Of a stretch of 64,000 bases of DNA, positions 23,201-56,398 are shown in pieces. The position numbers were made by a program, and so were the translations under genes. The stretch's first letter is position 1. Each line of letters begins with the position of its first letter. Source of the stretch: an uncultured Methanosarcinales archaeon (GTDB lineage: Archaea; Nanobdellota; Nanobdellia; Woesearchaeales; DATDXC01); the NCBI GenBank assembly GCA_964510025.1, contig CAZDZV010000002.1, positions 1-64,000 of the forward strand, read 5' to 3'. Below the pieces are notes generated by a model. The model searched no databases. It saw nothing but the letters and a program-made list of their open reading frames with translations, and was not told where the DNA came from.

Positions 23201-24661
23201 CTGACAGTCGAATGTGGTGTTGCCTGCAGAAATGTTGATGCATCTGGAGCTGGAAGAGCCTAGAATATCCTCGTACATAGCATATGTTCCCGAGATGTTG
23301 ATATCGATGCAATCTGTCACCCGGGTCTCCAAGACTGACTGTACAGCTGAATAGATGTCTATCCTTGGGAAGGACAGGCCAGAACCCGCATCCTCTATTT
23401 CTGCCCCAGTAACATTGAGTATATCCCTTATCTGAAAAGGGGTCAGGTTAGTATCATTATATAGTCTAGCAGCCTGCTTTACCAGGGCGGCTGCGCCTGC
23501 AACATGGGGGGTTGCCATAGATGTCCCTTCTTTTGACTGTACCCATGTCTTTACACCGCAGTCTCCTGCCAATGAGCATGGATACGCAGACCATATGTCC
23601 ACTCCCGGAGCCAGAAGGTCCAGAAGCTGATTCCTGTTTGTGAATGGGGCCATTGTGTCGGAATCTTGGGTTGCGCCGACCGATGTGACATTTGAAGCGC
23701 AGGCAGGATAGCTTATATATCCTGTATAGTAATCATTTCCAGAAGCCACAGAGACAAATATTCCGTTTGCAGTGGCATTATTCAGCATGGCTGCTCCGAG
23801 AAAACTGTCGCAGTAGCTTGAGTTGTCTTCAGCCCCATCACCAATGCTCATGCTTATAACAGATATATTATATTCCTCAGAGTGGTTAGTGCACCACTTA
23901 GCTGCTTTTGCATAGTCTGCTTCAGCGCATGCTCCGGATGAGTTGCAGACCTTCACGATGACAAGTTTTGCTCCAAAAGCAACGCCGCTGAAGGTCTTTG
24001 AGGTAGAGGCAACTGTACCGGCAACATGGGTCCCGTGGGAATGGTCATCATCGGCATCTGTGTCTTCTATCTGGTTGTTTGGGCAGCAGCCTCCCGAACC
24101 TTCGTCTGAGACGCTGCAGTAACAATGCTGCGCCAGGATCCTGTCATCTAAAAATTCGTGTGAATCATCTACCCCTGTATCCAGGATGCACACAGTCTCA
24201 TAAAGACCTGTAATGTTCGTGCCAGAGTGTGCTATCGGCCACGCCAGGTCAGCTCTTATTATCCCATTAGATGAATTCATCAGCACATAGCCAATCCTTT
24301 CCTCATAGATTTTTTCGATATTTGGATCATGCTGCAGCTGCTGATATTCCTCATGTGATATGTCTGCTGAATATGCCCTTGAGAACTTGTGGATCACAGT
24401 GGGGCTTGCTGAAGCCTTGATCTTAGTGTTGGGGGCCCTGTCTTTCAGCATCACTATCACCCTGATTTTTTCCTGTTGTGCCAGCTTTTCTGGTATTGAT
24501 GACTGTATCACAGGGGAGCTGTCGCTTAGCTGGAAGAATTCAGCCTGCTGTTGGGGGATCTTTTCCTGCAGCGTGACCTTAGCCAGAGCCTTATATCCGG
24601 AATCTGCCTGAGAGTATAAGATGCATAATATTAGCAATAAAAAAAATACCCCCTTTTTCAT
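20204..24661 (-). CDS. Membrane-anchored S8 subtilisin-like protease with NosD-like beta-helix and PGF-pre-PGF-like domain
   Basis: Signal peptide; ILDTG, HGTHVAG, GTSMATPHVAG; beta-helix repeats, GGNYW, poly-Gly linker, FSIFAIVG, C-terminal TM helix. Confidence 0.9.
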   Translation of the reverse strand: MKKGVFFLLLILCILYSQADSGYKALAKVTLQEKIPQQQAEFFQLSDSSPVIQSSIPEKLAQQEKIRVIVMLKDRAPNTKIKASASPTVIHKFSRAYSADISHEEYQQLQHDPNIEKIYEERIGYVLMNSSNGIIRADLAWPIAHSGTNITGLYETVCILDTGVDDSHEFLDDRILAQHCYCSVSDEGSGGCCPNNQIEDTDADDDHSHGTHVAGTVASTSKTFSGVAFGAKLVIVKVCNSSGACAEADYAKAAKWCTNHSEEYNISVISMSIGDGAEDNSSYCDSFLGAAMLNNATANGIFVSVASGNDYYTGYISYPACASNVTSVGATQDSDTMAPFTNRNQLLDLLAPGVDIWSAYPCSLAGDCGVKTWVQSKEGTSMATPHVAGAAALVKQAARLYNDTNLTPFQIRDILNVTGAEIEDAGSGLSFPRIDIYSAVQSVLETRVTDCIDINISGTYAMYEDILGSSSSRCINISAGNTTFDCQGHKIQGDGAAEYGIYIYSSGSRDTNITIRNCTLERWERSAVYIRQSHGNTIAGLNATSNTGDGLYLDTSSNNTIVDSAFRSNQKGIHIYLAKNNTVRSSRLINNTVYGLLINQSSENHIADLTIKNSSRADLYIRTAAKSDCNNIVDNITGTKDKPIAYINDTVAVEGWDNVSYIIFCNANYSTISNLTIDNLPFGNNMLLIERSYNMILESVNLTGLYSGVYMYQSRNITINDSFISNSSSSGIYYFESVNNTLSSCTIRNNRYGVSMEKESGSGSIYGNTITKNTIVSSTDFGISILSDYNRIFDNLFNNTQNYNLSQAYFNYWNTTNQTGPNIIGGVRIGGNYWAYPNATGISESCKDPEKDSLCDDLLNLSLNNTDYLPLHFVDNSSPLYFSNMTNGLFNSNINFTANITFLDDRNLDYIWFESNHTGSMVNYSFVNASAPSYSFNQSYNITISKGKTFQCRFHSNDTYNNLNSTVWESIAVRNAVPVISEIADITVNETNNVSITVTASDSDQEALTYGINDSHFSQDDNLFVWETNLSEEGIYHVMLNVTDSTDAGNRTVIVTVLNAQDLDNDGSPDFNDTDDDNDGLDDNSDTLHGNASTLNTTLPLNIFVNGSANITRVLNGTLSVNLTDYRNNTIVIFSWNFSNSSLVLNWTVDYAPENGTILIQHLNTLSQNTTKTVLINRSDSNFNHVCIADYNVGSLDDISSDCSGSNESRVPCTGSLGQYSCTLIGTRFEITGLNHSGVRGIYVAPEGGDDGGTGGGGGGGGGGGAAVKTATSETVKIGRINSGQAALAEFTAEDLLITGIEISVKRTVTASSVTAHNTGDDPGVAEPIGDIDVVAYLRITLAKISSSNMQQALVRFRIPKSEGYDPATVELRRFDGNWTSLPTQLKSQDSDSYYFESEVPEFSIFAIVGKRLEQELVQEATAEVQQEQTGEDQPADIAEDKEEESFQEAVPYADKPVLSAIAFVVLVVMAAIVFIMVKLFRKEL

Positions 24662-26736: not shown

Positions 26737-27264
26737 ATGGGGGATATCACCGGAAGGTTTTTTGTTCTTGATGTGATACTTCTATTTGTCTTCATCGGAC
26801 TGATCAGCATGGTATTCAGCCTGAGCAGGATATCTTTCGTAGGTGTTTTGGCAATACTTATAGTCCTGATGTTCTTTGCGTTTATCTCAGTGATGGGAGT
26901 CTACAGGAACAGAAACTGGGGCTTTATACTTCTTTCATCTGTGTTTGTAGCCATCCTTATCGGACTGATGATAGTGTATTCTATAAGAAGCACTATCAGC
27001 AGCAGGTTTGTCACGATAGCTATATTGAGCGCCCTAGGCTTTGTGATTGCTGTATCTGGCATAAAAAAGAAGGCTGTGCGTAAAGAAGAAGTGGAAAAGG
27101 TGTACACCAACTTCGAGCCTGGAAAATATGTAGCAAGCAAGGTAGGAAACACATACCATAGGCCAAGATGCGAGTGGGCAACGAAGATCAAGCCCAAGAA
27201 CAGGATATGGTTCCAGGATGAAAAAGAGGCCAAGAAGAAGTTCAAGCCTCATTCATGCATTTGA
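26737..27264 (+). CDS. Four-TM membrane protein with Ada-like C-terminal domain
   Basis: Four hydrophobic helices, then YVASK...YH...C.W...IKPKNRIWF. Confidence 0.65.
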   Translation: MGDITGRFFVLDVILLFVFIGLISMVFSLSRISFVGVLAILIVLMFFAFISVMGVYRNRNWGFILLSSVFVAILIGLMIVYSIRSTISSRFVTIAILSALGFVIAVSGIKKKAVRKEEVEKVYTNFEPGKYVASKVGNTYHRPRCEWATKIKPKNRIWFQDEKEAKKKFKPHSCI

Positions 27265-27689
27265 TCCTTCAAGAGAGATATCACCAGGACAATCGCTCCT
27301 ATTGTTATTGCTGCATCTGCTATATTGAAAGCGGGCCATATCCTGAAATCTATGAAATCTATAACATAGCCGAAGAATATTCTTGACAACAGGTTGCCTA
27401 TGGCTCCTGCTATTATCAATGCTATGGCTGCCCGGGGCAATGGCCTGTCCGGGACCTTATCGTAGTTCCATAGGATCAGCCCGAGAATCATTATTGTGAG
27501 CCATATGAGCAGGGAGTTGGTGCCTTTGAGTATGCCAAAGCCAGCTCCTGTATTCTGGATATAGGTAAGGTGGAAGATATCCCGTATTATTGGGATAGAC
27601 TGATGAAGATTAAGGTTCTTTACTATAAGGTATTTGGTGAGCTGGTCAACGAGAACAGATATTGATATTATCGATAGTGCCTTTTTCAT
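27249..27689 (-). CDS. lspA: Signal peptidase II (LspA) homolog
   Basis: DQLTK, N.GAGFG, GAIGNL, VIDFI, FNIAD. Confidence 0.9.
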   Translation of the reverse strand: MKKALSIISISVLVDQLTKYLIVKNLNLHQSIPIIRDIFHLTYIQNTGAGFGILKGTNSLLIWLTIMILGLILWNYDKVPDRPLPRAAIALIIAGAIGNLLSRIFFGYVIDFIDFRIWPAFNIADAAITIGAIVLVISLLKDQMHE

Positions 27690-28124: not shown

Positions 28125-28760
28125 TTATTGTTTATATACTGAATAGGAATACCAGAACAGGTAGATTATGCTGGCCAGTACCGAAACCAGTATTATCCAG
28201 ACCGCTATTGTGGGAAAAAAAAGAGAGGCTAACAGAACCAATGCAATAATCTTGAATACCTTTGATCCCATCTCGTGGGTCTTTTTCCAGACCTTGTCAT
28301 TGGCCAGAGCCCATGGCGTCCTAATACCGATGAAGTAGTTCCTTTTGACGGTCCTTATCAGATCACCCATTATGAAGAAAAGCATGGCCAGCGCAGGCAT
28401 GATAAAGTACATCATGTTGAAAGGATAGTACATCTGAAGAAGGACAGCTATATGAAGTGCAGCTAGAAAGAGCACCAATGAAGTTTTTATCCAGATATAC
28501 CTTGGAAGGAAATCCCTGATGTTTTTCTTGAAAACAGCTACAAAAGGTACAGCTGAAAGGAGTATGTAGACAAAAGCAGCAAGAATAGGTACAAAAAGCA
28601 CGCCCATAAACTTTGAGCCATAGCCGTCTGGCCTTCCATCAGCGCCCCAGTGCACCGGCACCATGCCGTGCTCATCTGTTGGTATGGTCGGATAGATATA
28701 TATAGACAAGATGACCAAAGACATTATGACAAGTATAGGTATTATCTCTCTTTTTTCCAT
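28125..28760 (-). CDS. SdpI/DUF1648-family membrane protein
   Basis: VPVHW...G.PDGY, RNYFIGIRTPWAL....W.KTH. Confidence 0.88.
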   Translation of the reverse strand: MEKREIIPILVIMSLVILSIYIYPTIPTDEHGMVPVHWGADGRPDGYGSKFMGVLFVPILAAFVYILLSAVPFVAVFKKNIRDFLPRYIWIKTSLVLFLAALHIAVLLQMYYPFNMMYFIMPALAMLFFIMGDLIRTVKRNYFIGIRTPWALANDKVWKKTHEMGSKVFKIIALVLLASLFFPTIAVWIILVSVLASIIYLFWYSYSVYKQ

Positions 28761-28844
28761 TATTTCTTAATATTTGGTTTATACTATAAATAGTTATTTA
28801 TTTTGGAAAAGTTTATATATAAATAAACAGGGTATTAGTATAAA

Positions 28845-29519
28845 ATCAAAAAGGGGACAGTTGAGCTAAACCTGAATCTGATAGTCATCATAATAATACT
28901 GGTAGCTTTGCTCTTCCTGATGAGCTTTTTTATGGGGAGCTCATTAAATGCAGGCGAGAAAAAGATAGGGGCAATCCTATCAAGAGAGCTCGAGCCGACT
29001 ACGCCGACGGAAAGCAACCCGTTGACGCTATCCAGGGAAAGCATCAAGACAGAAGCTGGAAGCACAGAAGCAATAAAGGTGAAGGTGCTGAATCCAACAG
29101 GCGAGGATTGGACAGCAAGATATGACCTGTATTCTGGATTCCAGGGTTGCGGGGCATCTGACAGGATATGCTACAAGGTTGATTGCGAAGATGATCCTGA
29201 CTGCCCTGCTGAGTGCGGAGAAGACGGCCACTGCCTGTGGAGCGATGGTTGTGAGAGCGGGGATCCCAGGGAGATGCAGGATTGCGGGCCGCAGGATGGT
29301 GTTGATATTTTGGTCAGGTGTGACAATGAGCTTAAGATCACAGAGGTTTCAAACCCAAAGATGATATTATCCAATGAGATCCAGGAATTCACAACTATCT
29401 TCAGGATAGGGAAAGATGTTGAGGGAAGGTATCTTTGCAATGTGAAGCTCTTCGGCAACAAGGTGGATGGAAGCCATATCGCCGGGATGACAAGAGACAT
29501 AACAGTGGAGGTCATCTAA
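28845..29519 (+). CDS. Cys-rich surface protein with class III-like signal peptide; start codon uncertain (ATC?)
   Basis: In-frame IKKG-TVELNLNLIVIIIILVALL lies upstream of the track's TTG start; no in-frame ATG before the hydrophobic segment. Confidence 0.65.
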   Translation: MKKGTVELNLNLIVIIIILVALLFLMSFFMGSSLNAGEKKIGAILSRELEPTTPTESNPLTLSRESIKTEAGSTEAIKVKVLNPTGEDWTARYDLYSGFQGCGASDRICYKVDCEDDPDCPAECGEDGHCLWSDGCESGDPREMQDCGPQDGVDILVRCDNELKITEVSNPKMILSNEIQEFTTIFRIGKDVEGRYLCNVKLFGNKVDGSHIAGMTRDITVEVI

Positions 29520-29520
29520 G

Positions 29521-32500
29521 ATCAGGAGATTTATCTTAATACTGCTGTTGCTGGCAGCCAACGTCTATGCAATAGAGGTCAATGTAAATGGTATCCCGGG
29601 CGATAATACACTAATCACAGGGGATGTCACAGGCGAGCAATATTACAGGTATGGCTATCTAAGATATATGGGCAGGTATTACAGCGTTGTGCTCTGCAGC
29701 CAATATCCCTGTTCTGGAACAAATGAATTTGAAATAAGCCTTCCTTTTAATATGGAGGGGCAGGAAGCCGAGCTCATGGTCTATGACTATACCACATATA
29801 CGTACTATGATGAAATATACGACAGAGAAGTAACCAGAAGAAGGGGTTGGACATATTTTCCGATAAGCTTTGTGACAGGCTGCACAGATGAGGACGGCAA
29901 TGATGAGTTTGCAAAGTCAGCAGCAGTGGGTATCAACGGAAGAAAGGAGGACAGCTGCCTGACTGAGAGCGTTCTGATGGAAGGTGTATGCAATGAACTT
30001 GAGAGCGAATGGGAGATGCATGATTGCATATGTGAAGATGGAAAATGCCTGGCTAAGTTTATTCCGCCAACACCTGTTGATATAGTACAGGGCACCACAA
30101 CTACAATAAAGCTTGAGCTGGCGGATAATATCAAGGCTGCCACACTGATGTGGGATCCTCCTTCAGGCAGTTTTGTTGATTCATTTTTCAGGTCTTTTTC
30201 AGATTTCTTCAGCAATAGGATATTTGCAAAGACAGGTCAGGCTTATTACCCATATAACACAGGCATATCGGTAGGGGGTAAACCTGACGGCATGGATGTA
30301 AAGGTCAAGGTCGGCATAGGCGGCCAGCTTATAGAGCTTCCGGATGGTGGCCTGCTTGTGAGCGGAACAGAGATCTTTACGGTCTATATCCAGGATACAG
30401 AAGGATACGATGCAGGAAATATCATATCATTCCAATATGATCCCAGAGAGGGCAATCTTGATCTTGGGACCATAACTGTAGAAAAAGGCCATGACAACGG
30501 CCATTTCTGGGTTGGAGCTGAGGGCTTCCCCGGAGAAGCTACTTTCTATGTCACAGGTACGGGCAGATGCGACCAGCTTGTTGAATGCGACGGCATAGGA
30601 CCATGCACAAGAGGAGCCATGGTGCACAGCTCAAGGATCACAGGCATCGGAAAAACATGCATCATCACAGGAGTGAGAGGGACGACTATCCAGAATAACA
30701 AACAGATCTTCCCATATGAAATGAATATAAACGGCAATAGCGCGGAATTTACAGTGGAAGGGCTTAGAAAAGGTATAGAGTATGACTACTGGATTGCACT
30801 TGAAAAGGATGATGGGAGCTATTTCGACAGCGCCTTAAGAAGCGTCGTTTCAGTGGAGGGAGACGACCTATGCTATAGTGAGGTTATCATTGCCTGGAAC
30901 AGGACAGGCTATGAGGGAAACAACTGGTGTGAGGGAGCTGACATCAACAGGGACGGTGCAGTTACTGTGACTGATGTAAGCATATTTAACCTGCATGACG
31001 GTGAAGATGAATGCGATTGGCTCTCTGGATGGTGCGGGGGAGCTGATGTGAACATGGATTCAGTAGTTAATGAAGAGGATTCAACAATAATAATCAGCTG
31101 GCTCGGGCATCAGTGTTCTGCTCTGATCCCTGTATTTGAGTTTGAGGTTGAGGGCATCCACAGCCTATATGGCGATTACTCAAATCTTGTGAACGATTAC
31201 AATGAGAATGACACTTTTGTGCTGAAAACATATGGGGATGGTTTGTCGGGAAAGTATTCCTTTTATCTTATGGATTATGGCTTCAACAGCTCTTTCCTGA
31301 GCTTTATCATACCTTTTGATCCTGATATAAATGGAATGAAGGCAGAGTTCGATGGGACAGAGACAGAGCTTGGTTTTGAGGGCGAAATCGTCTGTGAAAA
31401 AACTTGCCTGGTCGAGGATGAGACAGGGATGCTGGGGCAAGACGAATGCTGCTATGGCTTTGATATCTCCTATGCTGATGACCTTGAGATTGACGATGGG
31501 TGGGAGTTTATCTGCACAAACTGCGGTGATGGCACCTGTGACGAGCACGAATCATGGATGTCATGCTATGAAGACTGCTATGGCCAGCTAGAATGCAGGA
31601 ACTATGAGAAGAGGACAGAATTTGGATGCTTGAATGTTTCGCCTGTGACATACGGACTTGATCATTATTATGAATTTGAGAACAGCTATGAAGATAGTAT
31701 CACAGGAGCAAGCTGCATACATGACAACACACGCTTCATAGAAGGCGGAAGCGGCGTGGCTCTGCAGTTTGATGAAGGGTGCCTGACTAATCTGGGGAGC
31801 ATAGGAAGCGAGCGCTCGATTGCCTTCTGGGCTGAGGTGGATGAGCCAGAGGCAAGGAATTACCTGTATAGTGAAGATGATATCTATCTTTATGCAGAAG
31901 CTAAGAAGATATATTATTCATCAGGATGCGGTGTACATGAGATTGATAAGGACATCCAGGATATGGACTGGCATTATATTGTTATAACAAGGGACAGTAC
32001 AGAGGAGGCTGTATATATCGACAATAAGAGAGCCTATTCAGGCCAAGCATGCGGCTATGTGGGGTCTGGTGTGCAGATTGCTAGCTGCAATGCAGACGGC
32101 CTAAACGGCTCCATCGATGAGGTCATGATATTCAACAGAGCGTTAAGGCCTGAGGAGGCATCGGAATTGTTCTATTTCTTCGGGGGAGAGGAGGACTACG
32201 AGGAATTGGAAGAGTTTGAGGAGATGTCATTCAAGCTTTGCAGGGACGCATGCACTGACTCATTTTCCGTTTTCAAGAAAGATTCACCGATGCGTATAAA
32301 AGCTGAAAATACGCAGGATGCCCTTATAGAAGGTTTAGTCGAGCTTCCTGACGGGACAAAGGAGACAGTAGCATTTACAGATGGCTCTGCTGAGTATATA
32401 CCAGGCCAGGTTGGCGAGCATTATTTCTATGTGATTGCAAGCAAGGAAGGGTACAAGACAGTGATAATGCCAGAGAGCTTTATCGTCCTGGAAGAGCTTC

Positions 32501-33216
32501 CTGTTATCATAGGTGATTTTGATCCGCTTCCTTTCAGCGTGCAGGAAAATCTGGTATTATGGATGGACGGTTCAGAGGATAAGTCATATTACAGGAAACA
32601 TGGAGCATTGAATGGGGGTGCAAGAGTGACAGAATACGGCATTAAAGGAAAAGGCCTTGAGTTTGACGGGGATGGTGATTTTGTGTCGATTCCGGACGCG
32701 CCTGAACTTGAAAATCCTGAATGGACAGTATGTTTGTGGGCGTATCCAAGGAGCCTTGATGATGCCTATATCATCGACTCTGGCATGGAAGAAGATGTCG
32801 GCGGACTTGCAATGGTCATTAAGGACGGCAAATGGAGAGCTGATGCATGGGATGGCGAGACGTCAGTAGATCCTTCAGATTTCAACTATTGGGACACAGG
32901 AAGCGATGTATCATTAAACGAATGGACACATGTTGCAATAACTTCGACAGGCCTCGATGTCAAGGCCGGGGATCAGCTGTTGAGCTCAAAGATAACCATA
33001 TATGTCAATGGAAAGGAAGCTACCCATGCAAGGTTTGCAGGCACAAGATTTGCAGTCGGAAACCCCTGGCCCAAGAAGATCGGAAGGTCTGAAGGCTATG
33101 ACTGGGCGCCTGGGTATCTAGAGCCGTATTATTTTGAGGGCTATATAGATGAGGTGATGGCCTTCAACAGGGCATTGACAGCAGAAGAAGTGTGGGGAAT
33201 ATATAACCTAAGATGA
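29521..33216 (+). CDS. Large acidic secreted protein with dockerin-like repeats and two LamG/ConA-like domains; start uncertain (ATC?)
   Basis: Signal-like IRRFILILLLLAANVYA; ADINRDGAV...D and ADVNMDSVV...D; two G.IDEVM.FNRAL motifs. Confidence 0.8.
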   Translation: MRRFILILLLLAANVYAIEVNVNGIPGDNTLITGDVTGEQYYRYGYLRYMGRYYSVVLCSQYPCSGTNEFEISLPFNMEGQEAELMVYDYTTYTYYDEIYDREVTRRRGWTYFPISFVTGCTDEDGNDEFAKSAAVGINGRKEDSCLTESVLMEGVCNELESEWEMHDCICEDGKCLAKFIPPTPVDIVQGTTTTIKLELADNIKAATLMWDPPSGSFVDSFFRSFSDFFSNRIFAKTGQAYYPYNTGISVGGKPDGMDVKVKVGIGGQLIELPDGGLLVSGTEIFTVYIQDTEGYDAGNIISFQYDPREGNLDLGTITVEKGHDNGHFWVGAEGFPGEATFYVTGTGRCDQLVECDGIGPCTRGAMVHSSRITGIGKTCIITGVRGTTIQNNKQIFPYEMNINGNSAEFTVEGLRKGIEYDYWIALEKDDGSYFDSALRSVVSVEGDDLCYSEVIIAWNRTGYEGNNWCEGADINRDGAVTVTDVSIFNLHDGEDECDWLSGWCGGADVNMDSVVNEEDSTIIISWLGHQCSALIPVFEFEVEGIHSLYGDYSNLVNDYNENDTFVLKTYGDGLSGKYSFYLMDYGFNSSFLSFIIPFDPDINGMKAEFDGTETELGFEGEIVCEKTCLVEDETGMLGQDECCYGFDISYADDLEIDDGWEFICTNCGDGTCDEHESWMSCYEDCYGQLECRNYEKRTEFGCLNVSPVTYGLDHYYEFENSYEDSITGASCIHDNTRFIEGGSGVALQFDEGCLTNLGSIGSERSIAFWAEVDEPEARNYLYSEDDIYLYAEAKKIYYSSGCGVHEIDKDIQDMDWHYIVITRDSTEEAVYIDNKRAYSGQACGYVGSGVQIASCNADGLNGSIDEVMIFNRALRPEEASELFYFFGGEEDYEELEEFEEMSFKLCRDACTDSFSVFKKDSPMRIKAENTQDALIEGLVELPDGTKETVAFTDGSAEYIPGQVGEHYFYVIASKEGYKTVIMPESFIVLEELPVIIGDFDPLPFSVQENLVLWMDGSEDKSYYRKHGALNGGARVTEYGIKGKGLEFDGDGDFVSIPDAPELENPEWTVCLWAYPRSLDDAYIIDSGMEEDVGGLAMVIKDGKWRADAWDGETSVDPSDFNYWDTGSDVSLNEWTHVAITSTGLDVKAGDQLLSSKITIYVNGKEATHARFAGTRFAVGNPWPKKIGRSEGYDWAPGYLEPYYFEGYIDEVMAFNRALTAEEVWGIYNLR

Positions 33217-36200
33217 AGAAGATATTAAGGGCAGCTGCATGCTTTATGATAGCTTTGATAGTGTCGATCACAATATGCCATGCAAAGATAATCGATGGCA
33301 TATATGTGGAGGAGGGGTCTAGACAGACAACCAAGGGTTCTCGTGATAGCTCTGAACCTGGCTATGATGCTTTACCTCATGGAAGACCATATTATTTGAC
33401 GAACAGCAAATGGGACTGGAGCGAAGACCAGACGTGGTGGGATGAAACCAAAACAGACTATGAAACATCTGCAGACCTATCTTTTGATGATGAACAAGGA
33501 TGGCAAGGCACTGCCACCAAGAAAGAGACAACATCCTATGAAGAGGAGAGCCATGCTCATTGGATGGATGTCTGGGCTGATGGACCTTATGATACCCGAG
33601 TCATAGCCTGCAAGATCGACTATAAAGGGGAAAGCACAAAGATTGAAAAGGCCACCTTAACCTGTGAAGAAGGTATCTGCGAGGAATGCCATGAAGAAAC
33701 CTATGAGATGGATGGAAAATGGACAAGAAATTGCGAATCATGGGGGGAAAGGAACAGCCAGACAGTTCAGTATGATTATGAAACTACCACAGAAGAAGTA
33801 CCTGTCGAGGATGATTACACTGTACCCAAGATTTGTTATCAGCGTGAAGACTACAGCTGTTTTAACGACTGGAGCTACCTGTTTGCTGACCAAGACCGGG
33901 TGGAACCGCATGAATCTGCCTATGTAAATGAAGAGCCTGAGTGTTACGGAAGGGTGCTTCGCTATGAGGTTGAGCAGCCGATGACGCTAGTACATGAATC
34001 TCATGCTCCGAATTGGGACTACAACCAATATGATTATGATGAGATCTCTGTTGACTATAGATGGCACAGCTGCTATGATAAAGAGCTGGAAACAGAGCTG
34101 TTTATAGATTCTTCATCATATTTTGCGATAGATCCGATTATCAATCTTGATAGGGCTGCTATCCAGAAGGATGACGAGATATTCTATATGATGGGGCGTA
34201 TGGAGAGGTCTGACAAAATAGGCTGTGAGATAAAGGTTAATGAAATCGAAGCAGATGAGGAAATAACCAAGTTTAAGCTTCTGGATGAAAGCGGCAATGT
34301 GATCGCAGAGGAGGATGTTGCAAAATGGCAGGAAAGAGAATGTTACATGCCCGGCTGCTTGATAAGCTGGGTTATTTTTGAGGATGAATCCCTGTATGAG
34401 CAGGATAAGATCCCAAGAGGAGAGAAGCTGACATGCGTCTTCGAGGGATCCAGCACATTAAAGCCCAAGCCTATACCCTTAATCCTGCTGGAGAACAGGA
34501 AAGATGAATCAAGATATTCAGAGTCGACTGTGTTCTCTGTTTCTGAAGATGACTGGAGAAACGTATTGTCGTCTATACCTGCGACATTATGGTACAATGA
34601 GTCTTTTGGAAGGGATTATTATGGCAAAACGCAGGGGATAAATATGCAAAATGAATGGTGCCAGCATACTGATGATGTGATGAATGAGGAAGGGGAGCTA
34701 GAGCCCTCTAAGAAATGCGCCTATCCTTTGATAGTGCACGCGGGAAATCCCTTTACAGGCAGCCACTACAAAAGCGAGATATGGGACTCCAATGTGCCTG
34801 GATATGATTTTGACAGGTTCATGCTGGACTATGATATACAGGATGTCAGGGAAGGAAGGTTCTGGAAAGAACAGTGGAAATCCGCTGGCGTTGCTGTTGT
34901 GGTTGACTACAATGATTACAAGACTGGACTGTTGGCTGCCCAGTTTGCTTCCTATTTCAACGCCCCATTGGTGTTCGTTGGGCAGGAAAACAGGAATGAG
35001 TGGCAGGAGTACCTTGATGCAAAAGCGCTGATAATCATCGGAAGCCTTGAGGCAGGAATAGCTGAAGAGCTGAAAGAAAAGAATGCCATATTAGAATATG
35101 ATGACTATTATAACTTTAGGTTTCCCTGCTGGTATGGTTATGACAGTGTTGAGTGTGATTTTCCTGCGATGACTTTAACTTCAGATGAGCTGCAGGATCT
35201 CCTTTTTGACCTAGTGCGGGGTTCTGACTTAGGCTATAAATCAGACAAAGGGATAGTTGTGACCAATCCGAATGATATTGAAAATGAGTTCTGCGAAGAC
35301 GGAGAGTTCTGCAAGATGTCCTTGTTTGCCCCTATGCTGGCCTTTGATAAAGACTGCCATATGGGATTTTTAGACAATGATAAGGTAACAAGCTTCCATG
35401 AACTGCAAAGGCTAGATAAGGAGCTCGAGGAAGAATTAGGGAAGGAAAATCCCAGCGAAACTGTTATTGATGGCTTGTTTGATGAAGAGGAAACCATAGA
35501 CAATGAGATAAGGGGCGCTGCAGAATCCATAGGGGGCAAGCTATGGACAGATATCTTCTATAATGATGATTACTATTACAGCTATATATCAGATTATGTC
35601 ATGTTTTTAGGGGGTCCGACTGCAATACCCATAAGCACAAGCACTATAAGCAACCTTGACGCTTTCTATGTGGATGAAGACGGATATCTTCAGGAATGTG
35701 AATGCGAGATAGAGCCAGACAAGGACTATGACAGGTTCTACCACCGCACAACAGCAGACATGTCTGCCAAGATTGCCCAGCACCTGATTGGCTTCCCTGA
35801 ATGTGCGGCTTGTGAGGATGGCTCATGCGAATGGCCGCTGACAGGCGGGGCAGTTATGACGACCATGAGCGGCAAGAAGGAGGAGGTTGACCCGATAGCA
35901 GAGTATCTGGCTGGATTGATCTATGAATACAGACATGACGGAGGTATGGCATACCTATACCACTGGATCAGGGGGGATCCGGGAACCACATCTGAGTATC
36001 TCATCAGCAAGTCTGGCTCCTCTTCGAACAACAGACCAGACTACCAGCCGCTGTCCAGAGAATTAGAAAGAATCCTGGTTCAACAAAAAGACACAAAAAT
36101 CACGACATTGGAGGAGGACAGGATAAGCTGCCCTTTGAACAAGCAATCTAGAATATACTCATATTCTTCAGAATCACCGATGAGCGGAAGGAGCGTTTGG

Positions 36201-37952
36201 CTGAAAACAAAAATAAACCTGGATACCTTTGAACAAAACCTGGCTATTGCACACTACTATAGTATAATGAACAGGTTTAGGCAGGGAATTTTCTCAAAAA
36301 TAGATGCTATAGCAGCTGCTAACAGGCTATTATCCACCCAGAGCATAGCGCCCATTCAATTACCTGAACTTAATGACTATGTAAAACAGATGTTCCCTGA
36401 GGTTGAGGCTTATAGGTGCGTCATCAGTGGCGGATTCGGATGTTCGCTCTCTGACTTGGATCCAGAGACAAAGCAGAGATATTTGAACCTGCAAAAGCAT
36501 CTCACAGAGATGGATCTCGATAAATTATCCAAAGCCACTAAATCAGTGTTGATAAAACTGCAGGAAGAGCATAACGTGCAAATATATCTCAAGGCAATGT
36601 ATGATTACTACATGGATGTAGCTATGATGCCCAGGCTGCCTTTCATGGATGATCCGGCAGAAGGGTCAACGCCGGAGTTAAAGCATACCAGATTTGGGAT
36701 ATTCCTTATGCGCCCGTGGGAAATCGGGAAGCATTCAGTGGAGCCGATCGACTGGGATGTTGAGACATTTCAGAGAGAGAGGTGGACTCATAATTACAGA
36801 GACTGGAACCCAGAGCTGTTGGAAAAGGTGTATGATTTTGTAAAGGGCGATACACTAGCTGATACAATAAAAAATATAGGGAAAGCTCTGCCTGGTGTGA
36901 AGGACAGCAGAAGCGCTAGCAAAAGTGCTTTTTATTGGGTCAATGGTAAGGTCTTTGGGGATACATTTGACCACGATCTAACCAATACCGAATCAGCGTT
37001 TATAGCGCAGCTAAAGGAGAACAGGCAAAAGGCACAAGAGGATATTGGGAAAATTCAAGATGCGATAGAATGCATACATACCCCATCCTCGCAGTTGTAT
37101 TCTGATCCAGCAAATGATAACACTAGATTTGAAGCATGCTCGCTTAAGGTAGATCGAGCATTTACGGTTTCTCCATTCGAATACAGGCTGAATGAGGTTC
37201 AGTCTGAGTTCTACGGCCCTGGTCTTCCCGGAGAGAAAGCACTAGAGGAAACAGAAAAGCAAATAGTCAATATGTGGTTCTCCACTGCAGAGGACGCGCA
37301 GAGAAAACATAAGGATATACTCAATACTAACAAGATAGTATCTGAGATCGCTTTGATAGCTGCTGTTGCTATAGCAACATTTGGCGTTGGAACTGCAGCT
37401 TCCGGGGTTTTTGGCGCCCTTACATTTATTGCACAGGGCAGCTTAGCTAAAGGTTTCATTGGACTAGCCCTCATGGGGTACCATTATCTGCATGGTGTGC
37501 CTGCTGCAGTGACAGCAGCCTGGAACGCTTGTTCTGGGCAGGATATACAGCCAGGAGAAAACGCAGTTTTGAATATTGGACCTGTACGCGCAGTAGATGA
37601 TTCTGCCTGCTTCCAATCGGCTTTCCTGGCCGGCATTTATATAGGGGGGTTGATAGCGGCTGAGACTGTAAGTGCGCTTAAATTCTTTAGATTAGAAGAC
37701 ACATCCTTGTATAAACACCTAACAGAGAAACCGGCTGTAAAGCCAGCTGTCAAAGGCGGCTGCTTCCTGGAAGACACAAGTATTAAGATGGCTGACGGAA
37801 GCTATAAGGATATTGAAGATATTCAAATAGGGGAGAAAGTGATGGCTTATGATATTGAGAATGACCAGCCAGTGGCTGCAGATGTGACCACAACATTTGT
37901 CAGGAACGAAACAAGCTACAGGATTATCGAATATGAGATTATCGAAGAATGA
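33213..37952 (+). CDS. Large secreted protein (1579 aa) ending in an N-terminal Hint/intein fragment
   Basis: Signal peptide; acidic Cys-rich body; Ala/Gly hydrophobic segments; C-terminal GG-CFLEDTSIKMADGSYKDIEDIQIGEKV. Confidence 0.88.
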   Translation: MKKILRAAACFMIALIVSITICHAKIIDGIYVEEGSRQTTKGSRDSSEPGYDALPHGRPYYLTNSKWDWSEDQTWWDETKTDYETSADLSFDDEQGWQGTATKKETTSYEEESHAHWMDVWADGPYDTRVIACKIDYKGESTKIEKATLTCEEGICEECHEETYEMDGKWTRNCESWGERNSQTVQYDYETTTEEVPVEDDYTVPKICYQREDYSCFNDWSYLFADQDRVEPHESAYVNEEPECYGRVLRYEVEQPMTLVHESHAPNWDYNQYDYDEISVDYRWHSCYDKELETELFIDSSSYFAIDPIINLDRAAIQKDDEIFYMMGRMERSDKIGCEIKVNEIEADEEITKFKLLDESGNVIAEEDVAKWQERECYMPGCLISWVIFEDESLYEQDKIPRGEKLTCVFEGSSTLKPKPIPLILLENRKDESRYSESTVFSVSEDDWRNVLSSIPATLWYNESFGRDYYGKTQGINMQNEWCQHTDDVMNEEGELEPSKKCAYPLIVHAGNPFTGSHYKSEIWDSNVPGYDFDRFMLDYDIQDVREGRFWKEQWKSAGVAVVVDYNDYKTGLLAAQFASYFNAPLVFVGQENRNEWQEYLDAKALIIIGSLEAGIAEELKEKNAILEYDDYYNFRFPCWYGYDSVECDFPAMTLTSDELQDLLFDLVRGSDLGYKSDKGIVVTNPNDIENEFCEDGEFCKMSLFAPMLAFDKDCHMGFLDNDKVTSFHELQRLDKELEEELGKENPSETVIDGLFDEEETIDNEIRGAAESIGGKLWTDIFYNDDYYYSYISDYVMFLGGPTAIPISTSTISNLDAFYVDEDGYLQECECEIEPDKDYDRFYHRTTADMSAKIAQHLIGFPECAACEDGSCEWPLTGGAVMTTMSGKKEEVDPIAEYLAGLIYEYRHDGGMAYLYHWIRGDPGTTSEYLISKSGSSSNNRPDYQPLSRELERILVQQKDTKITTLEEDRISCPLNKQSRIYSYSSESPMSGRSVWLKTKINLDTFEQNLAIAHYYSIMNRFRQGIFSKIDAIAAANRLLSTQSIAPIQLPELNDYVKQMFPEVEAYRCVISGGFGCSLSDLDPETKQRYLNLQKHLTEMDLDKLSKATKSVLIKLQEEHNVQIYLKAMYDYYMDVAMMPRLPFMDDPAEGSTPELKHTRFGIFLMRPWEIGKHSVEPIDWDVETFQRERWTHNYRDWNPELLEKVYDFVKGDTLADTIKNIGKALPGVKDSRSASKSAFYWVNGKVFGDTFDHDLTNTESAFIAQLKENRQKAQEDIGKIQDAIECIHTPSSQLYSDPANDNTRFEACSLKVDRAFTVSPFEYRLNEVQSEFYGPGLPGEKALEETEKQIVNMWFSTAEDAQRKHKDILNTNKIVSEIALIAAVAIATFGVGTAASGVFGALTFIAQGSLAKGFIGLALMGYHYLHGVPAAVTAAWNACSGQDIQPGENAVLNIGPVRAVDDSACFQSAFLAGIYIGGLIAAETVSALKFFRLEDTSLYKHLTEKPAVKPAVKGGCFLEDTSIKMADGSYKDIEDIQIGEKVMAYDIENDQPVAADVTTTFVRNETSYRIIEYEIIEE
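37761..37949 (+). other. Split Hint domain, N-fragment (63 aa)
   Basis: Block A CFLEDTSIKMADG and K.IEDI..GE.V motif; stop codon occurs before any TxxH block B. Confidence 0.9.
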
Positions 37953-39012
37953 GCTTAAGAATGCTGCCTTGTTCTTGATTTTGCTAATTCCAATTGCCTA
38001 TTCTGCTGAGCTTAGGGTAACCTTAGAGCATCCATTCCTGCTGGAAGGCGGATGGGTAGCTGCTTCTGAGCTTAAGGTCGGGGATGAGCTTACTACGTCT
38101 GATGGAAGAAAAGCCAGGATAAAGAATATCATCGATGTTGGTAGCCAAGTTGAGGTCTATAATCTTCATGTTGCCGGGCCAAATACGTTCTTTGCAAATG
38201 ATATCCTTGTGCATAACAAAGCCATGCCAGCGCGCAAGGGACATCCGTACCTGCCAGATGTCCCGGAGGAAAAGCTTTCTTTAACAGCATCATCAATGGA
38301 AACTGAAGGGGAAAGGGCATTTGCAGCTGAGTTTGTGAGAGAATCGTATTCCAAAAGGTTTATGGAAGCATATGCAAAAGCAATGGCAGATCCTGCAAAC
38401 AAAGGCAAGACAATCCAGCAACTAATAGATGCAAAGGTAATAAAACCTGGAGATGTTGCTATGGCTTTATACGCTGATGATGCAGCCCAAAAGGTATTGA
38501 GCGGGAAGATAGACAGGGTGATATTATTCGCTTCAAAATCAGGCGATGACTACCCTGCCCTGGCAATGCAGGGAAGCTATGAGAGCCCTCTTGTAAAGAC
38601 TGTGGCACAGCACGGCATGCGTACAAGGGAAATAACAGTATACTCAACAGGAAGAAATCCAATAGCAGGCAAGCAGCCCTTTGAAGTGATTGCAAGAACT
38701 GCTCTGGATGCGCTAGACTATCCTGACGTTGAGGGAATATCTATTCTTGTTGAGATGAGAGAAGCAAGAATCTACGCCAGATATCTTCCGTGCCAATATG
38801 CCCCAAAAAAAATGGTCGAAGCATATGTGTTATCCAATCCAGGACATGAGCTGGTTTGCGACACCATAAAGGGACAGACTGTATGGTATGCCCAACATAC
38901 AGACAGCGGTATGCTGCTTGGACAGCCTGTCCAGGCTGAGATAAGCGATGTTATTATGATATCAAAACCGGAAATAAGTGAAGCATTACTAAATCTTCTT
39001 AAAGGGCAATAG
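37933..39012 (+). CDS. Signal peptide + Hint C-fragment + cargo domain 1
   Basis: MRLSKNELKNAALFLILLIPIAYS, then AELRVTLEHPF...VYNLHV...FFANDILVHN, then 264 aa of unique sequence. Confidence 0.88.
   Translation: MRLSKNELKNAALFLILLIPIAYSAELRVTLEHPFLLEGGWVAASELKVGDELTTSDGRKARIKNIIDVGSQVEVYNLHVAGPNTFFANDILVHNKAMPARKGHPYLPDVPEEKLSLTASSMETEGERAFAAEFVRESYSKRFMEAYAKAMADPANKGKTIQQLIDAKVIKPGDVAMALYADDAAQKVLSGKIDRVILFASKSGDDYPALAMQGSYESPLVKTVAQHGMRTREITVYSTGRNPIAGKQPFEVIARTALDALDYPDVEGISILVEMREARIYARYLPCQYAPKKMVEAYVLSNPGHELVCDTIKGQTVWYAQHTDSGMLLGQPVQAEISDVIMISKPEISEALLNLLKGQ
38005..38231 (+). repeat. 227-bp direct repeat, copy 1 (Hint C-fragment)
   Basis: Ungapped match to 39789-40015; 14 mismatches by manual count. 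Confidence 0.95.
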
Positions 39013-39610
39013 GCCTTATGCTCTTATAGAGTTCTAGCTGGCCCCCCTCTGTTATTGTTGTTGGATCCTGAAAAACAAGGCAAGGGACATCCTTTCCGGT
39101 TCTTGTTGAAATCGTACCTGCTAAGCTTAAAGAACCACTAGCCCCAAGAAGTGAATTAAGGTCAAGTGCATAAGGACCGTCTGGATTATTTCTAAGAGGC
39201 AGCCCTGTCGGATCATGCATATCTTCTTGTCTGAAGTGAATGGTCAGGTCTCTTCCTGGTTCTGGCAGCTCTATCTCATATTTTGCGCCTGTCCTTTCAA
39301 GATAAAGCTGCATGGAAGATGCTGCTGCACCTGTTACAACTGCATCCAGAGTCTCTTGGACCTGGGGCGACAGTTCTGCTCCTGCTTCCCGTAGATGTTC
39401 ATAGGCCAGAAGAAATTCCCTGGGTGTCATAACTCTGAAACCCATGGCTTTCACCACTGATCCGGCCTTTTCTGGCGGCAGATACACAGTATCATCAATA
39501 ACTTCATAATCTGTCAAGCCCACAGCTTCAGCTGCGTTTCTGAATTTCGCATCATCCTGCAGCAGCTGCATGCTTATCCTGCCAATGCCAGGTACTTCGA
39601 TAAATCCCAT
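38999..39610 (-). CDS. Hypothetical protein (candidate partner/immunity of cargo 1)
   Basis: 203-aa ORF converging on and overlapping the cargo 1 gene end. Confidence 0.6.
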   Translation of the reverse strand: MGFIEVPGIGRISMQLLQDDAKFRNAAEAVGLTDYEVIDDTVYLPPEKAGSVVKAMGFRVMTPREFLLAYEHLREAGAELSPQVQETLDAVVTGAAASSMQLYLERTGAKYEIELPEPGRDLTIHFRQEDMHDPTGLPLRNNPDGPYALDLNSLLGASGSLSLAGTISTRTGKDVPCLVFQDPTTITEGGQLELYKSIRPIAL

Positions 39611-39731
39611 ATAAAAAAGATTATATTAAGTATTATATAAATCTTTCTATTTTTTTACCACTATATGATGATTACAATAATAAATTGAGGAACCGAAAAG
39701 TTTATTTGCCTGTAAAACCAAAAAGATAATA

Positions 39732-40613
39732 ATGAAGAAACTACTGTCAGTTTCCTTGTTATTATTATTTGTAGGTATAGCCTTTGCTGCTGAGCTAAAG
39801 GTGACCTTAGAGCACCCTTTTCTGGTGGAAGGTGGATGGGTAGCTGCTTCTGAGCTTAAGGTGGGGGATGAGCTTACTGCATCTGATGGAAGAAAAGCCA
39901 GGATAAAGAATATCATCGATGTTGATAGCCCAATTGAGGTCTATAATCTTCATGTTGCCGGGCCAAATACGTTCTTTGCAAATGATATCCTTGTGCATAA
40001 CAAAGCCATGCCAGCCAATGCAAGATTCAGGCCAAGCCATCCACGTGTATTGAGAATGCATAACTGTAGAGGAGAATTTGTTGATGATGTGGTAGTAAGC
40101 AGCATAAGTGAAAAGCGAGGCATCAGGACAGTATTTAAGACAAAATTGGGTGATGGCAGGCTTGGCGCAAAAGCGACAGTGAATGGAAGAACAGGAGAAA
40201 TCCGATTTTGGAAAGGTGGACCAAGTGATAAGTCAGTGCACCATATAGGATCTACTTCAAGGTTCCTGGCAGATGACCTTGGCCGTAATCCTTGTGATAC
40301 CCGCTGGCAGGATATCATTGGTATGATTGATGATGGTCAGCTGAATCCAAAAGAGCTTTCCAGATATGTGAATTTTGAGCTGCAGCTAAATAGCGACAAC
40401 ACCATAACTGCGATAAGAAATGGGTTGCCTGAACAGGTGCGTGCGTATCGTAATCTACCTACAAACCAGGATGAATTCTGGTATGCTATCAAGGCTATGC
40501 AGGATGAAATCAATGCAGCCAACAGGGCTATCAATCCCACCTTGCCTGTGGAAGGACTGCCGATCGTCGATCCAAATATGCAAGAGCTGCCTGTCTTTCT
40601 TACTAGCCCTTAG
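39732..40613 (+). CDS. Signal peptide + Hint C-fragment + cargo domain 2
   Basis: MKKLLSVSLLLLFVGIAFA, then AELKVTLEHPF...FFANDILVHN, then 203 aa of unique sequence. Confidence 0.9.
   Translation: MKKLLSVSLLLLFVGIAFAAELKVTLEHPFLVEGGWVAASELKVGDELTASDGRKARIKNIIDVDSPIEVYNLHVAGPNTFFANDILVHNKAMPANARFRPSHPRVLRMHNCRGEFVDDVVVSSISEKRGIRTVFKTKLGDGRLGAKATVNGRTGEIRFWKGGPSDKSVHHIGSTSRFLADDLGRNPCDTRWQDIIGMIDDGQLNPKELSRYVNFELQLNSDNTITAIRNGLPEQVRAYRNLPTNQDEFWYAIKAMQDEINAANRAINPTLPVEGLPIVDPNMQELPVFLTSP
39789..40015 (+). repeat. 227-bp direct repeat, copy 2 (Hint C-fragment)
   Basis: Matches 38005-38231. Confidence 0.95.
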
Positions 40614-41016
40614 CTGGCGCTACGAGTTCCACATATCTTGGTATATCTTCGATAGGATAACCTGTTATCCCTTCTGCAATCCCTAAAATTCTATCTGCGA
40701 TATCCCTTGCTATCCTGTCTCTATCCGGTTTCCAGTCTGCTCCTACTCTTGTATCTGCAAGATAATCAGCATAATCCTGGAGCTTTGCCAACAATTCATC
40801 CGCCTCACCTGCCTGGCAGCTTTTTCTTAACTTACCTTCAAGCTCTTCTACACTTGCATGGTAGTCTGCAAGTGTACTGTTTATAGTATCCATGCTAGCT
40901 GGTGGTTGTGTCTCGTACATGAGATGTAATGTAGATTCCAAAGTGAGTACTGCTAGAGCTTTTGTAGCATCGTTTATGTCTCTGCAATCAGCTCCGGCAT
41001 ACGTAAATTCCTTCAT
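40603..41016 (-). CDS. Hypothetical helical protein (candidate partner/immunity of cargo 2)
   Basis: 137-aa acidic ORF converging on and overlapping the cargo 2 gene end. Confidence 0.6.
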   Translation of the reverse strand: MKEFTYAGADCRDINDATKALAVLTLESTLHLMYETQPPASMDTINSTLADYHASVEELEGKLRKSCQAGEADELLAKLQDYADYLADTRVGADWKPDRDRIARDIADRILGIAEGITGYPIEDIPRYVELVAPAKG

Positions 41017-41645
41017 CTTATCTGCCTCCTTTGGATGACTCTTCTATCAATGTCCAGTATAGCAAAACTTCCTGGCTCTCGTTTAGCTAAGGATCCAGGA
41101 GTCACTATGTAGCGTATTCCTGGTCTTATGGTGATTGTCTCTGCTCTAATCTCGCCATATCTGTCTTTTCTTGGATCATGCCAGAAACAGACTGGCTCAT
41201 GATAGTGGCCTATAATAGCTACCCTTGTTCCTGGATGTTGGACTTCCATATATTTAAATGCCTCCTTTGCAAGATCCATAGATTCCACCCTTACAAAACT
41301 GTCTGGGGGAATATTATGCGCGAATAGCAAATCCCCTTCTGTAATCAGCTGAGGCAATGCTCGTAAATATTCTATATTTTGGGGCCAGATTTTAGCTTCC
41401 ATTTCACTTGTACCTGCTCTTTCTCTTTGAGCTGCCATTATCTCTAGAGCAGTATCCTCATGATTGCCCCTTACAGCTCTTGACTCTGAGTTCCTGACAA
41501 GATCTACACATCTGTTCTCATCAAAATGCACACCCCAATGGATAATGTCACCAAGTGCATAAACAGTTCTGGGATCCAGCTGCTGATAGGCCTTATCAAG
41601 TCTAGCGAAATCACCATGAATATCGGATATAATTCCTATCTCCAT
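41013..41645 (-). CDS. Calcineurin-like metallophosphoesterase
   Basis: ISDIHG, LGDII, RGNHE, FAH, GHYH, PGS. Confidence 0.9.
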
Positions 41646-51763: not shown

Positions 51764-51795
51764 TGTTTTTATATCCTATAATCAAAATTCATGAT

Positions 51796-55833: not shown

Positions 55834-56398
55834 ACAGATGAAAAAACTGGAAGACAGATCTGAGAAGCTCGGGGTCAGCAAGCTGCAGCTCATGGAAAAA
55901 GCCGGAAAAGGCTTATATCAGGTTGTCAGGAAAAGATATCCTGATGCAATAAAGATATTGGTAGCGGCTTACCATGGCAACAACGGAGGAGACGGGTTTG
56001 TGGCTGCTAGGTATCTATGCAATGAGTATGAAACAGATATCCTTTTTATTGGAGACAAAGAAAGACTCAAGGAGGAGGGAAGAGTGAATTTCAGAAAGAT
56101 CAGGGGTCTAGTGGTGGAAAGGGCTGATTTTGATGAATATGATGTGATCATAGATGCGCTGCTCGGCACAGGCATCAGGGGAAGGCTGAAGGGAAAGGTC
56201 GCAGATATAATAGAAAGGATAAACCAGGCAAGAGCAGCCAAGATATCTGTCGATATTCCATCTGGAATGGACCCTGACACAGGTGAAATCGCAGATGTTG
56301 CTGTTGATGCTGACCTGATAGTATGTTTTCATGATATTAAACAAGGGCTGTCCACGCTTGAGAAAAAGGTGGTGGTTGTGGACATCGGGATAATATGA
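55820..56398 (+). CDS. nnrE: NAD(P)H-hydrate epimerase (YjeF N-terminal domain)
   Basis: LMEKAG, GNNGGDGFVAARYL, DALLGTG, SVDIPSG. Confidence 0.93.
   Translation: MITAEQMKKLEDRSEKLGVSKLQLMEKAGKGLYQVVRKRYPDAIKILVAAYHGNNGGDGFVAARYLCNEYETDILFIGDKERLKEEGRVNFRKIRGLVVERADFDEYDVIIDALLGTGIRGRLKGKVADIIERINQARAAKISVDIPSGMDPDTGEIADVAVDADLIVCFHDIKQGLSTLEKKVVVVDIGII

Follow-up and report, generated by a model that had tools for sequence, protein, structure and literature searches.

The window analyzed here, positions 1 to 64,000 (64,000 nucleotides [nt], forward strand) of contig CAZDZV010000002.1 (assembly GCA_964510025.1), comes from an archaeon deposited as an uncultured Methanosarcinales and placed by GTDB in the Woesearchaeales. 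A diphthamide synthesis gene marks the host as archaeal, and the nearest relatives with a split Hint likewise point to the Woesearchaeales. It encodes a Hint (intein-like) domain in pieces, the N-terminal half (N-half) at the end of one large carrier protein and the C-terminal half (C-half) near the start of each of two cassette proteins, all three of which are predicted to be secreted. The split in the window is genuine, with an assembly error excluded, and the division of the domain is almost certainly natural. From comparison with related loci, we consider it on the whole probable that these genes represent a polymorphic-toxin-like system, in which one secreted carrier and a number of cassettes, each secreted on its own, share a naturally split Hint.

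A Hint domain encoded in three pieces

The carrier open reading frame (ORF; 33213..37952, plus strand) specifies an acidic protein of 1579 amino acids (aa), the final 63 of which, Cys1517 to Glu1579 (37761..37949, plus strand), constitute the Hint N-half, spanning block A to just ahead of block B and directly preceded by Gly. The cassette ORFs on the same strand, cassette 1 (37933..39012; 359 aa) and the free-standing cassette 2 (39732..40613; 293 aa), each consist of a hydrophobic leader, a Hint C-part, and an unrelated tail. The C-part, which carries block B (TLEH) and ends in His-Asn, extends over Glu26-Asn95 in cassette 1 (38008..38217) and Glu21-Asn90 in cassette 2 (39792..40001), and the residue that follows (+1) is Lys in both. 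In Pfam, the carrier end matched Hint/Hom_end_hint with an E value of about 1e-6, slightly below the curated cut-offs, and the cassettes matched PT-HINT over positions 55-136 of 137 (E 7e-11) and 54-136 of 137 (E 5e-14). Against a custom Hint hidden Markov model (HMM), for which 21 contiguous Hints from related genomes were used, the N-half aligned to positions 1-56 and the C-half to positions 63-131 of 131, with zero overlap, and the best PDB match of the C-half profile was 2LWY, a bacterial intein-like (BIL) domain (E 6e-13). Neither half alone holds the full Hint active site. These results agree with a first-pass annotation of the same DNA, which had described a 1579-aa signal-peptide protein ending in a 63-aa Hint N-part and two genes, at 37933 and 39732, each with its own leader, a Hint C-part, and an unrelated cargo, and had proposed Pfam as a check. 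Its view that the halves add up to one minimal Hint held with respect to the lack of overlap, but the C-part is 70 aa long and not 71, and the sum is 133 aa and not 134.

Export signals were evaluated by a heuristic that looks for a basic n-region and a hydrophobic core, the cleavage sites being candidates. All 26 proteins evaluated (the window carrier and 25 cassettes) passed, compared with 222 of 1463 ORFs in the genome, and each of the 25 cassettes examined thus has its own leader by this heuristic. In the window, the predicted signal peptides are a 24-aa Sec signal peptide in the carrier (33213..33284, cleaved between CHA and K) and those of cassette 1 (37933..38004, between AYS and A) and cassette 2 (39732..39788, between AFA and A), all on the plus strand. 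The separate export of both halves, as originally proposed, is supported by these predicted leaders and by their recurrence among the relatives.

The genes for the carrier and cassette 1 overlap by 20 nt in different frames, the cassette ATG lying within the Tyr-Glu codons of the carrier. This junction was bridged with 0 differences by Logan contigs from two sequencing runs, X1 (37652-38127) and X2 (37499-38775), which belong to one microbial-mat study and one of which may be the source sample; the read support sought in the first-pass annotation was thereby obtained, with no hidden contiguous Hint. Moreover, no Hint sequence beyond the three window pieces was found in the whole genome (33 contigs, 1.70 Mb, 97.7% complete). 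The two C-half copies are 93% identical in DNA over 228 nt, with 8 synonymous and 6 non-synonymous codon differences, whereas the leaders and cargos of the two cassettes are unrelated, as had been claimed for the cargos.

Recurrence and rarity of the split

The same break, referred to as type I, was found in nine carriers (the window, L048, L049, L065, L066/L067, L068, L076, L224, and P0013), and an assembly error is removed as an explanation because these were assembled separately. L048 is from Pacearchaeota, L049 is from Aenigmarchaeota, and L224 is from the genome of a Woesearchaeota record (L047), so that the split is conserved, as judged by sequence, across three DPANN lineages. P0013 (1570 aa) is a full-length homologue of the window carrier with the same end point; the two share 65% identity over the N-half but 32% over the rest of the protein. 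Correspondingly, 29 type-I cassette genes start the C-half at the same point, and a protein search with the C-half returned 11 matches, six of which (P0004-P0009) consist of a leader, the same C-half start, and an unrelated tail. Locus scans covered 17 loci in genomes and at least 60 in metagenomes; many partial Hint-C matches in gut-metagenome loci L079-L116, which are leaderless cassette fragments beside contiguous Hints, were left out of the counts. Both kinds of gene that the first-pass annotation had proposed to look for in DPANN relatives, those with a leader and Hint C-part and those ending in a Hint N-part, were thus found, and, with eight further carriers showing the same break, homologues elsewhere are not always contiguous.

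The one-carrier, several-cassette layout was also reproduced. One carrier and two cassettes were present in all four genomes viewed whole (G000, which is that of the window, and G788, G789, and G790, which represent Pacearchaeota, Woesearchaeota, and Aenigmarchaeota), with a cassette on another contig in G788 and G789 and on the opposite strand in G789 and G790. The cassette start lies within the carrier Tyr-Glu codons in five of the eight carriers with DNA context, and there is no overlapping cassette in the other three, the cassette being on the opposite strand in L049 and 280 nt away in L068, and none occurring before the contig end in L224. Two observations bear on the movement of such units. 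In L046 (9915-9945), a free-standing cassette behind an SMC-like gene has the last codons of a carrier Hint N-half upstream, a footprint of cassette movement. In L224, a short broken copy of the start of gene L224:10593-11894 lies past the carrier stop (L224:1-360), and this gene belongs to the partner unit of a distant cassette, suggesting turnover of cassette-partner units.

The catalytic residues were preserved throughout. Cys1 was invariant in seven of seven aligned N-halves, the block-B Thr and Glu-His and the terminal His-Asn in 20 of 20 aligned C-halves, and the residue before the Hint (-1) was Gly in all nine type-I carriers; the +1 residue across the 29 type-I cassettes was Ser in 18 and Lys in 11. 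Because neither half has the full active site, this conservation, although a matter of sequence, is best explained by selection on the halves to work in trans. In a tree of the C-terminal Hint parts (62 columns), the C-halves from the same genome paired (window, L049, and L076); the tree was poorly resolved and neither supported nor contradicted a single type-I origin.

The system is rare. In an order-level scan, 63 of 401 genomes matched the C-half, and the loci read from 33 of them were mostly contiguous Hints in secreted proteins, with split pieces in G000, G146, G259, G307, and G049. A phylum-level sample of 401 genomes contained 29 with a match to the N-half profile (a tally that includes G501, G112, and G592, flagged unpublished), and of the 30 loci read, 28 were contiguous, one was cut by a contig end, and one, that of the window, was split. 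In a class sample, six of 401 matched at E<=1e-14, with only G000 split, and viral contigs gave 27 loci (best E 3e-8), the best four of which were read and included no split Hint. A Hint broken over two frames in L041 (G164; 208-1041), which lacks signal peptides and lies beside a second Hint, has the look of a frameshifted remnant and was not counted.

A second break type (type II), just after the block-B His, was found in three Woesearchaeales-type relatives, at loci L036 (G049), L038/L039/L225 (G307), and L034 (G259), with several N-half and several C-half genes. The cargos there include SLT, M23, and Amidase_3 domains, the +1 residue was Ser in five of five C-halves, and type II stood apart, with moderate support, in the tree of C-terminal Hint parts. 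In G307, three genes, which encode a leader and N-half (118 aa), another N-half (313 aa), and a signal and C-half (765 aa), stand where G119, of the same family and without gaps, has one Hint-less protein of 972 aa. The C-terminal domain of this G307/G119 protein was present in 62 of 401 genomes, a tally that includes G208, G374, G206, and G121, flagged unpublished; apart from this tally and that of the phylum sample, nothing reported here depends on unpublished genomes. Because the G307 split genes replace a single-chain protein, their layout favours ligation for type II, as far as gene order can suggest it. In addition, one protein of G307 begins with a C-half and contains a complete Hint farther along the chain, and the type-II set includes a 2288-aa protein that ends in an N-half. 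Outside the window, the source genome has a region orthologous to the G307 type-II locus (G000:C7:54316-79962) that encodes giant secreted proteins and proteins with KGQ/RGQ leaders and has no Hint; a 10-N scaffold gap (65444-65453) lies there inside the gene that is split in G307.

Cargos, proposed mechanism, and alternatives

Cargo 1 (38218..39009, plus strand; 264 aa) and cargo 2 (40002..40610, plus strand; 203 aa) are orphans. No homologue of cargo 1 was found among 1.84 billion representatives, and a word-index search with cargo 2 (31 candidates) returned only itself. Single-sequence AlphaFold2 (AF2) models reached pLDDT values of 47.6 for cargo 1, with a best VIA Z of 6.5 to generic Rossmann-like folds, which is uninformative, and 38.0 for cargo 2; Foldseek gave no match to the cargo 1 model at E<=0.001, and PDB sequence searches with cargo 1 and four related cargos gave none. 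The top ESM Atlas scores (0.77 and 0.76; PT-HINT, deaminase, and Ntox47/HNH clusters) were no better than those that shuffled proteins can reach and were disregarded. Most cargos show no relation to one another (five BLAST pairs among 27 sequences). A Pfam toxin family was assigned to only one of 22 type-I cargos, the Fic domain of L049 (E 5e-11), and scans with NCBIfam and PHROGs gave nothing beyond this match. By eye, motifs in other cargos tentatively suggest kinases, ADP-ribosyltransferases, a papain-like (Cys-His-Asp) enzyme, an HExxH peptidase, and RelE, labels that the PDB searches did not confirm. The cargo of one further cassette (P0008/L068:3103-3861) looks by eye like a second, divergent Hint-like domain, in a cluster whose members are 95-473 aa long.

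Downstream of each window cassette, in tail-to-tail orientation, lies a leaderless gene on the minus strand, encoding a 203-aa protein after cassette 1 (38999..39610) and a 137-aa protein after cassette 2 (40603..41016). The latter is co-oriented with a calcineurin-like metallophosphoesterase gene (41013..41645, minus strand; Metallophos_2, E 7e-14), a candidate reversal enzyme of a family that also follows cassettes in L049, where the cargo is Fic, and in L065. A tightly convergent gene was found after 12 of 20 cassettes, compared with 354 of 1430 genes in the genome (25%; binomial p 9e-4, with kin not independent). The cargos of L048 and L065 are 49% identical and have both partners in common, one being an SGNH hydrolase and the other an uncharacterized protein. 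The partner of cassette 1 matched neither Pfam nor NCBIfam, and no known immunity family was found; from their position, the convergent partners are candidate immunity proteins. These partners, the Gly/Ala-rich stretch described below, the +1 Lys, and the second break type had been overlooked in the earlier reading. The hypervariability of the cargos, their placement as in PT-HINT proteins, the examples with Fic or cell-wall enzymes, and the presence of partner genes lead us to suggest that the cargos are likely to be antagonistic effectors.

The carrier has, ahead of its N-half, a Gly/Ala-rich hydrophobic stretch at about aa 1375-1490 (37335..37682, plus strand) with hydropathy peaks of 2.13, 1.42, and 1.66, which is a candidate membrane-inserting segment. 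The Gly+Ala fraction in the 200 aa before the Hint was 0.18-0.24, compared with 0.08-0.14 elsewhere, in eight of eight type-I carriers, in all of which this region is moderately hydrophobic; hydropathy peaks exceeded 2 in two of them, those of the window and of L076. Four type-I carriers are immediately preceded by a protein of about 245 aa with a KGQ/RSQ-type leader (L048:5741, L065:2660, L066:3820, and L224:4018), which we take to be a pilin-like class III signal; it is absent upstream of the window carrier.

It is quite likely, as far as sequence can indicate, that the halves pair and react in trans, and the following mechanism may be proposed. Sec would export each protein, and signal removal would leave the C-half beginning at its first strand. 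Outside the cell, the C-half would dock on the terminal N-half of the carrier to form one complete Hint fold, with the carrier contributing Cys1 to the rebuilt active site and the cassette contributing the block-B Thr/His and the His-Asn, and either cassette could load onto the carrier. The idea in the first-pass annotation that the cargo is then released or ligated needs to be restricted, as canonical splicing is impossible in this genome because both C-halves precede Lys; the +1 Ser of 18 of the 29 type-I cassettes is compatible with it elsewhere. With Lys, the Hint would most likely retain the cargo at first and release it later through Asn cyclisation, and a degree of ligation to the carrier Gly without a nucleophile may also occur; in the relatives with Ser, true trans-splicing of the cargo to this Gly may be possible. 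The Gly/Ala-rich stretch would then enter a target membrane and deliver the cargo, and the convergent leaderless partners would protect the producer. Switching of effectors without DNA recombination had also been proposed; this may hold for the pairing of proteins, but the 93% DNA identity of the C-half copies leaves recombination between cassettes as a possible additional source of variation.

Several points weigh against the toxin-like interpretation. Since the two cargos and the two small partners in the window are all orphans, toxicity is argued from relatives, and Pfam and PHROGs placed no toxin family in 21 of 22 type-I cargos. A convergent partner is missing from eight of 20 cassettes, and the partners are convergent here, whereas classical toxin-immunity pairs are co-oriented. 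Both window halves are acidic, with net charges of -11 for the N-half and -4 and -5 for the C-halves, and so show no charge complementarity; in other carriers, the N-half charge ranges from -6 to +2. Furthermore, no delivery machine is encoded nearby, and an odd number of spans of the Gly/Ala-rich stretch in the producer membrane would trap the N-half inside, out of reach of the exported C-half.

In one alternative, the exported split Hint would build or decorate the cell's own surface, and a membrane-anchored carrier would acquire exchangeable enzymes or adhesins that lack toxicity, either through trans-splicing or through clasping. The replacement of the single Hint-less G119 protein by split genes in G307, the occurrence of the C-terminal domain of that protein in 62 of 401 genomes, the +1 Ser of all five type-II C-halves, the lack of family matches for most cargos, and the hydropathy peaks above 2 in the window and L076 carriers are in accord with it. 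However, the G307 case belongs to the other break type, the type-I cargos are hypervariable, include one Fic domain, and have leaderless convergent partners that co-vary with them, and five of eight type-I carriers have no peak above 1.75 beyond the leader. We thus regard a surface role as unlikely, at roughly one chance among several.

A reservoir function at the level of DNA or translation, in which a +1 frameshift at the overlap or recombination gives a contiguous carrier-Hint-cargo protein like that of classical polymorphic toxins, is suggested by the cassette ATG within the Tyr-Glu codons and by the 93% DNA identity of the C-half copies. A frameshift would, however, insert the hydrophobic leader into the Hint, and it is inadequate as a general explanation because cassettes may be unlinked or on the opposite strand and because three of eight carriers (L049, L068, and L224) have no overlapping cassette. 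Since every complete cassette examined retains its own leader, cassette 2 has its own promoter-like motif, and a contiguous version of this carrier type was not seen, we give this explanation little probability. The view of the Hint as a non-catalytic clasp, with the halves holding carrier and cargo together and no bond being made or broken, is similarly improbable: the +1 Lys of both window cassettes and of 11 of the 29 overall would suit it, whereas the invariance of Cys1, Thr/His, and His-Asn and the -1 Gly of all nine type-I carriers would not. Finally, a decayed relic or assembly error, which the rarity of the split in the phylum sample might bring to mind, is largely refuted and can practically be dismissed in view of the nine separately assembled carriers, the junction bridged in two runs, the intact reading frames and catalytic residues, and the 8 synonymous versus 6 non-synonymous differences between the C-half copies.

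Genomic surroundings and relation to known systems

Upstream of the carrier, with a 4-nt overlap at its start, lies the gene for a 1222-aa LamG-domain protein (29548..33216, plus strand), which is possibly co-transcribed with the carrier; it is not conserved upstream of other carriers, and its membership in the system is uncertain. An AT-rich intergenic region (39611..39731) separates partner 1 (minus strand) from cassette 2 (plus strand) and has promoter-like motifs for both, including one upstream of cassette 2 itself, which may represent B recognition element (BRE)/TATA motifs. A 21-nt promoter-like motif is common to both convergent units, 22-23 nt ahead of the starts, and this 21-mer, present in 39611-39731 and upstream of 41645, has three exact copies in the genome. 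A sigma-70 promoter scan gave chance-level results, the model being unsuited to an archaeon. Elsewhere in the window, the 203-aa ORF at 28908 is preceded (28760-28908) by an in-frame hydrophobic stretch that lacks a standard start, and a different frame there carries a KRGQ motif; this is possibly a pilin-like gene with a frameshifted or non-standard start. Further large secreted proteins (20204-24661, 51763-55833, 50768-51763, and 56395-58473) include two subtilases (1485 and 1356 aa) and beta-helix and MopE-repeat proteins. A 641-aa protein (13277-15202) is an amino-acid permease fused to an S-adenosylmethionine (SAM) methyltransferase domain, and a bacterial-type signal peptidase II (Peptidase_A8; 27249-27689) and TatC (9595-10290) are present in this DPANN-type archaeon.

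The system joins two known kinds, PT-HINT polymorphic toxins and split inteins. In PT-HINT toxins, the HINT is contained in one chain, immediately ahead of the toxin that it sets free, and DNA recombination brings cassettes into use by joining them to an invariant 5' gene body (Zhang et al, 2012; PMC3482391). The present system shares with PT-HINT (PF07591) systems a carrier, here with a predicted signal peptide, a Hint before a variable C-terminal domain, extra cassettes, and adjacent candidate immunity genes. It differs in that the Hint is in two chains, the window carrier and eight others stopping after the N-half, each cassette has its own predicted signal peptide, and the partners are convergent; it falls outside the PT-HINT systems, since the presumed toxin and the carrier are separate chains and the cassettes are predicted to be exported on their own. 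Natural BIL domains are contiguous, minimal Hints in secreted proteins, with a +1 residue that is often no nucleophile (PMC7664689). The present Hint resembles A-type BIL domains in its minimal size of about 133 aa without an endonuclease, its Cys1 and His-Asn, its variable +1 residue, and its occurrence in secreted proteins, and differs in not being contiguous and in the +1 Ser of 18 of 29 cassettes. To judge from titles, BIL domains without a +1 nucleophile reportedly perform splicing and trans-splicing, and a split BIL is reported only as an engineered construct (Aranko, 2013).

The known split inteins (cyanobacterial DnaE and the "fractured genes" gp41, NrdJ, IMPDH, and terminase) restore a single cytoplasmic enzyme from a 1:1 pair. 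[quoted passage not shown] Here, as in split inteins, two genes encode complementary halves with Cys1, the block-B His, and the terminal His-Asn all present, but the break is just before block B (in type II, just after its His), the parts are predicted to be exported, the pairing is one-to-many, the +1 residue in the window is Lys, and each carrier has two unrelated C-exteins in the four genomes viewed whole; a single-chain orthologue is matched only by the type-II locus of G307. Binary (A-B) toxins have separately secreted delivery and enzyme components. The present system would follow the same logic, with a single delivery protein and a choice of enzymes that are each exported on their own, but no sequence relation was seen, and docking here would use a self-processing split Hint. 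Peptidoglycan hydrolases are prominent in Nanoarchaeota, and Hint or intein is not mentioned in the sections consulted of the paper that describes them (PMC12352652). In the literature searched, which included few subscription journals, no natural exported or one-to-many split Hint was described, in line with the first-pass annotation, which knew of no such layout.

This study suggests, tentatively and a little short of probability, that DPANN archaea evolved, at least twice to judge from the two break points, an extracellular shuffling of proteins in which secreted split Hints, by docking and then cleaving or trans-splicing, arm one delivery protein with any of several effectors; in type II, several N-parts would combine with several C-parts. 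If this is true, naturally split intein-like domains would exist that function once exported and pair in a one-to-many manner, as would a polymorphic arsenal without DNA recombination, in which the choice of payload after secretion would be a third route beside the 1:1 cytoplasmic split inteins and DNA recombination. Proof of one-to-many pairing outside the cell would justify calling it a new kind of system. The short halves (63 and 70 aa), the unusual break site, and the inferred extracellular action also make these Hints candidate tools for protein ligation. The system offers a concrete starting point for asking how these very small archaea may act against, or manipulate, hosts and competitors, and it comprises about 30 cargo domains, most of them uncharacterized, together with the candidate immunity proteins that match them.

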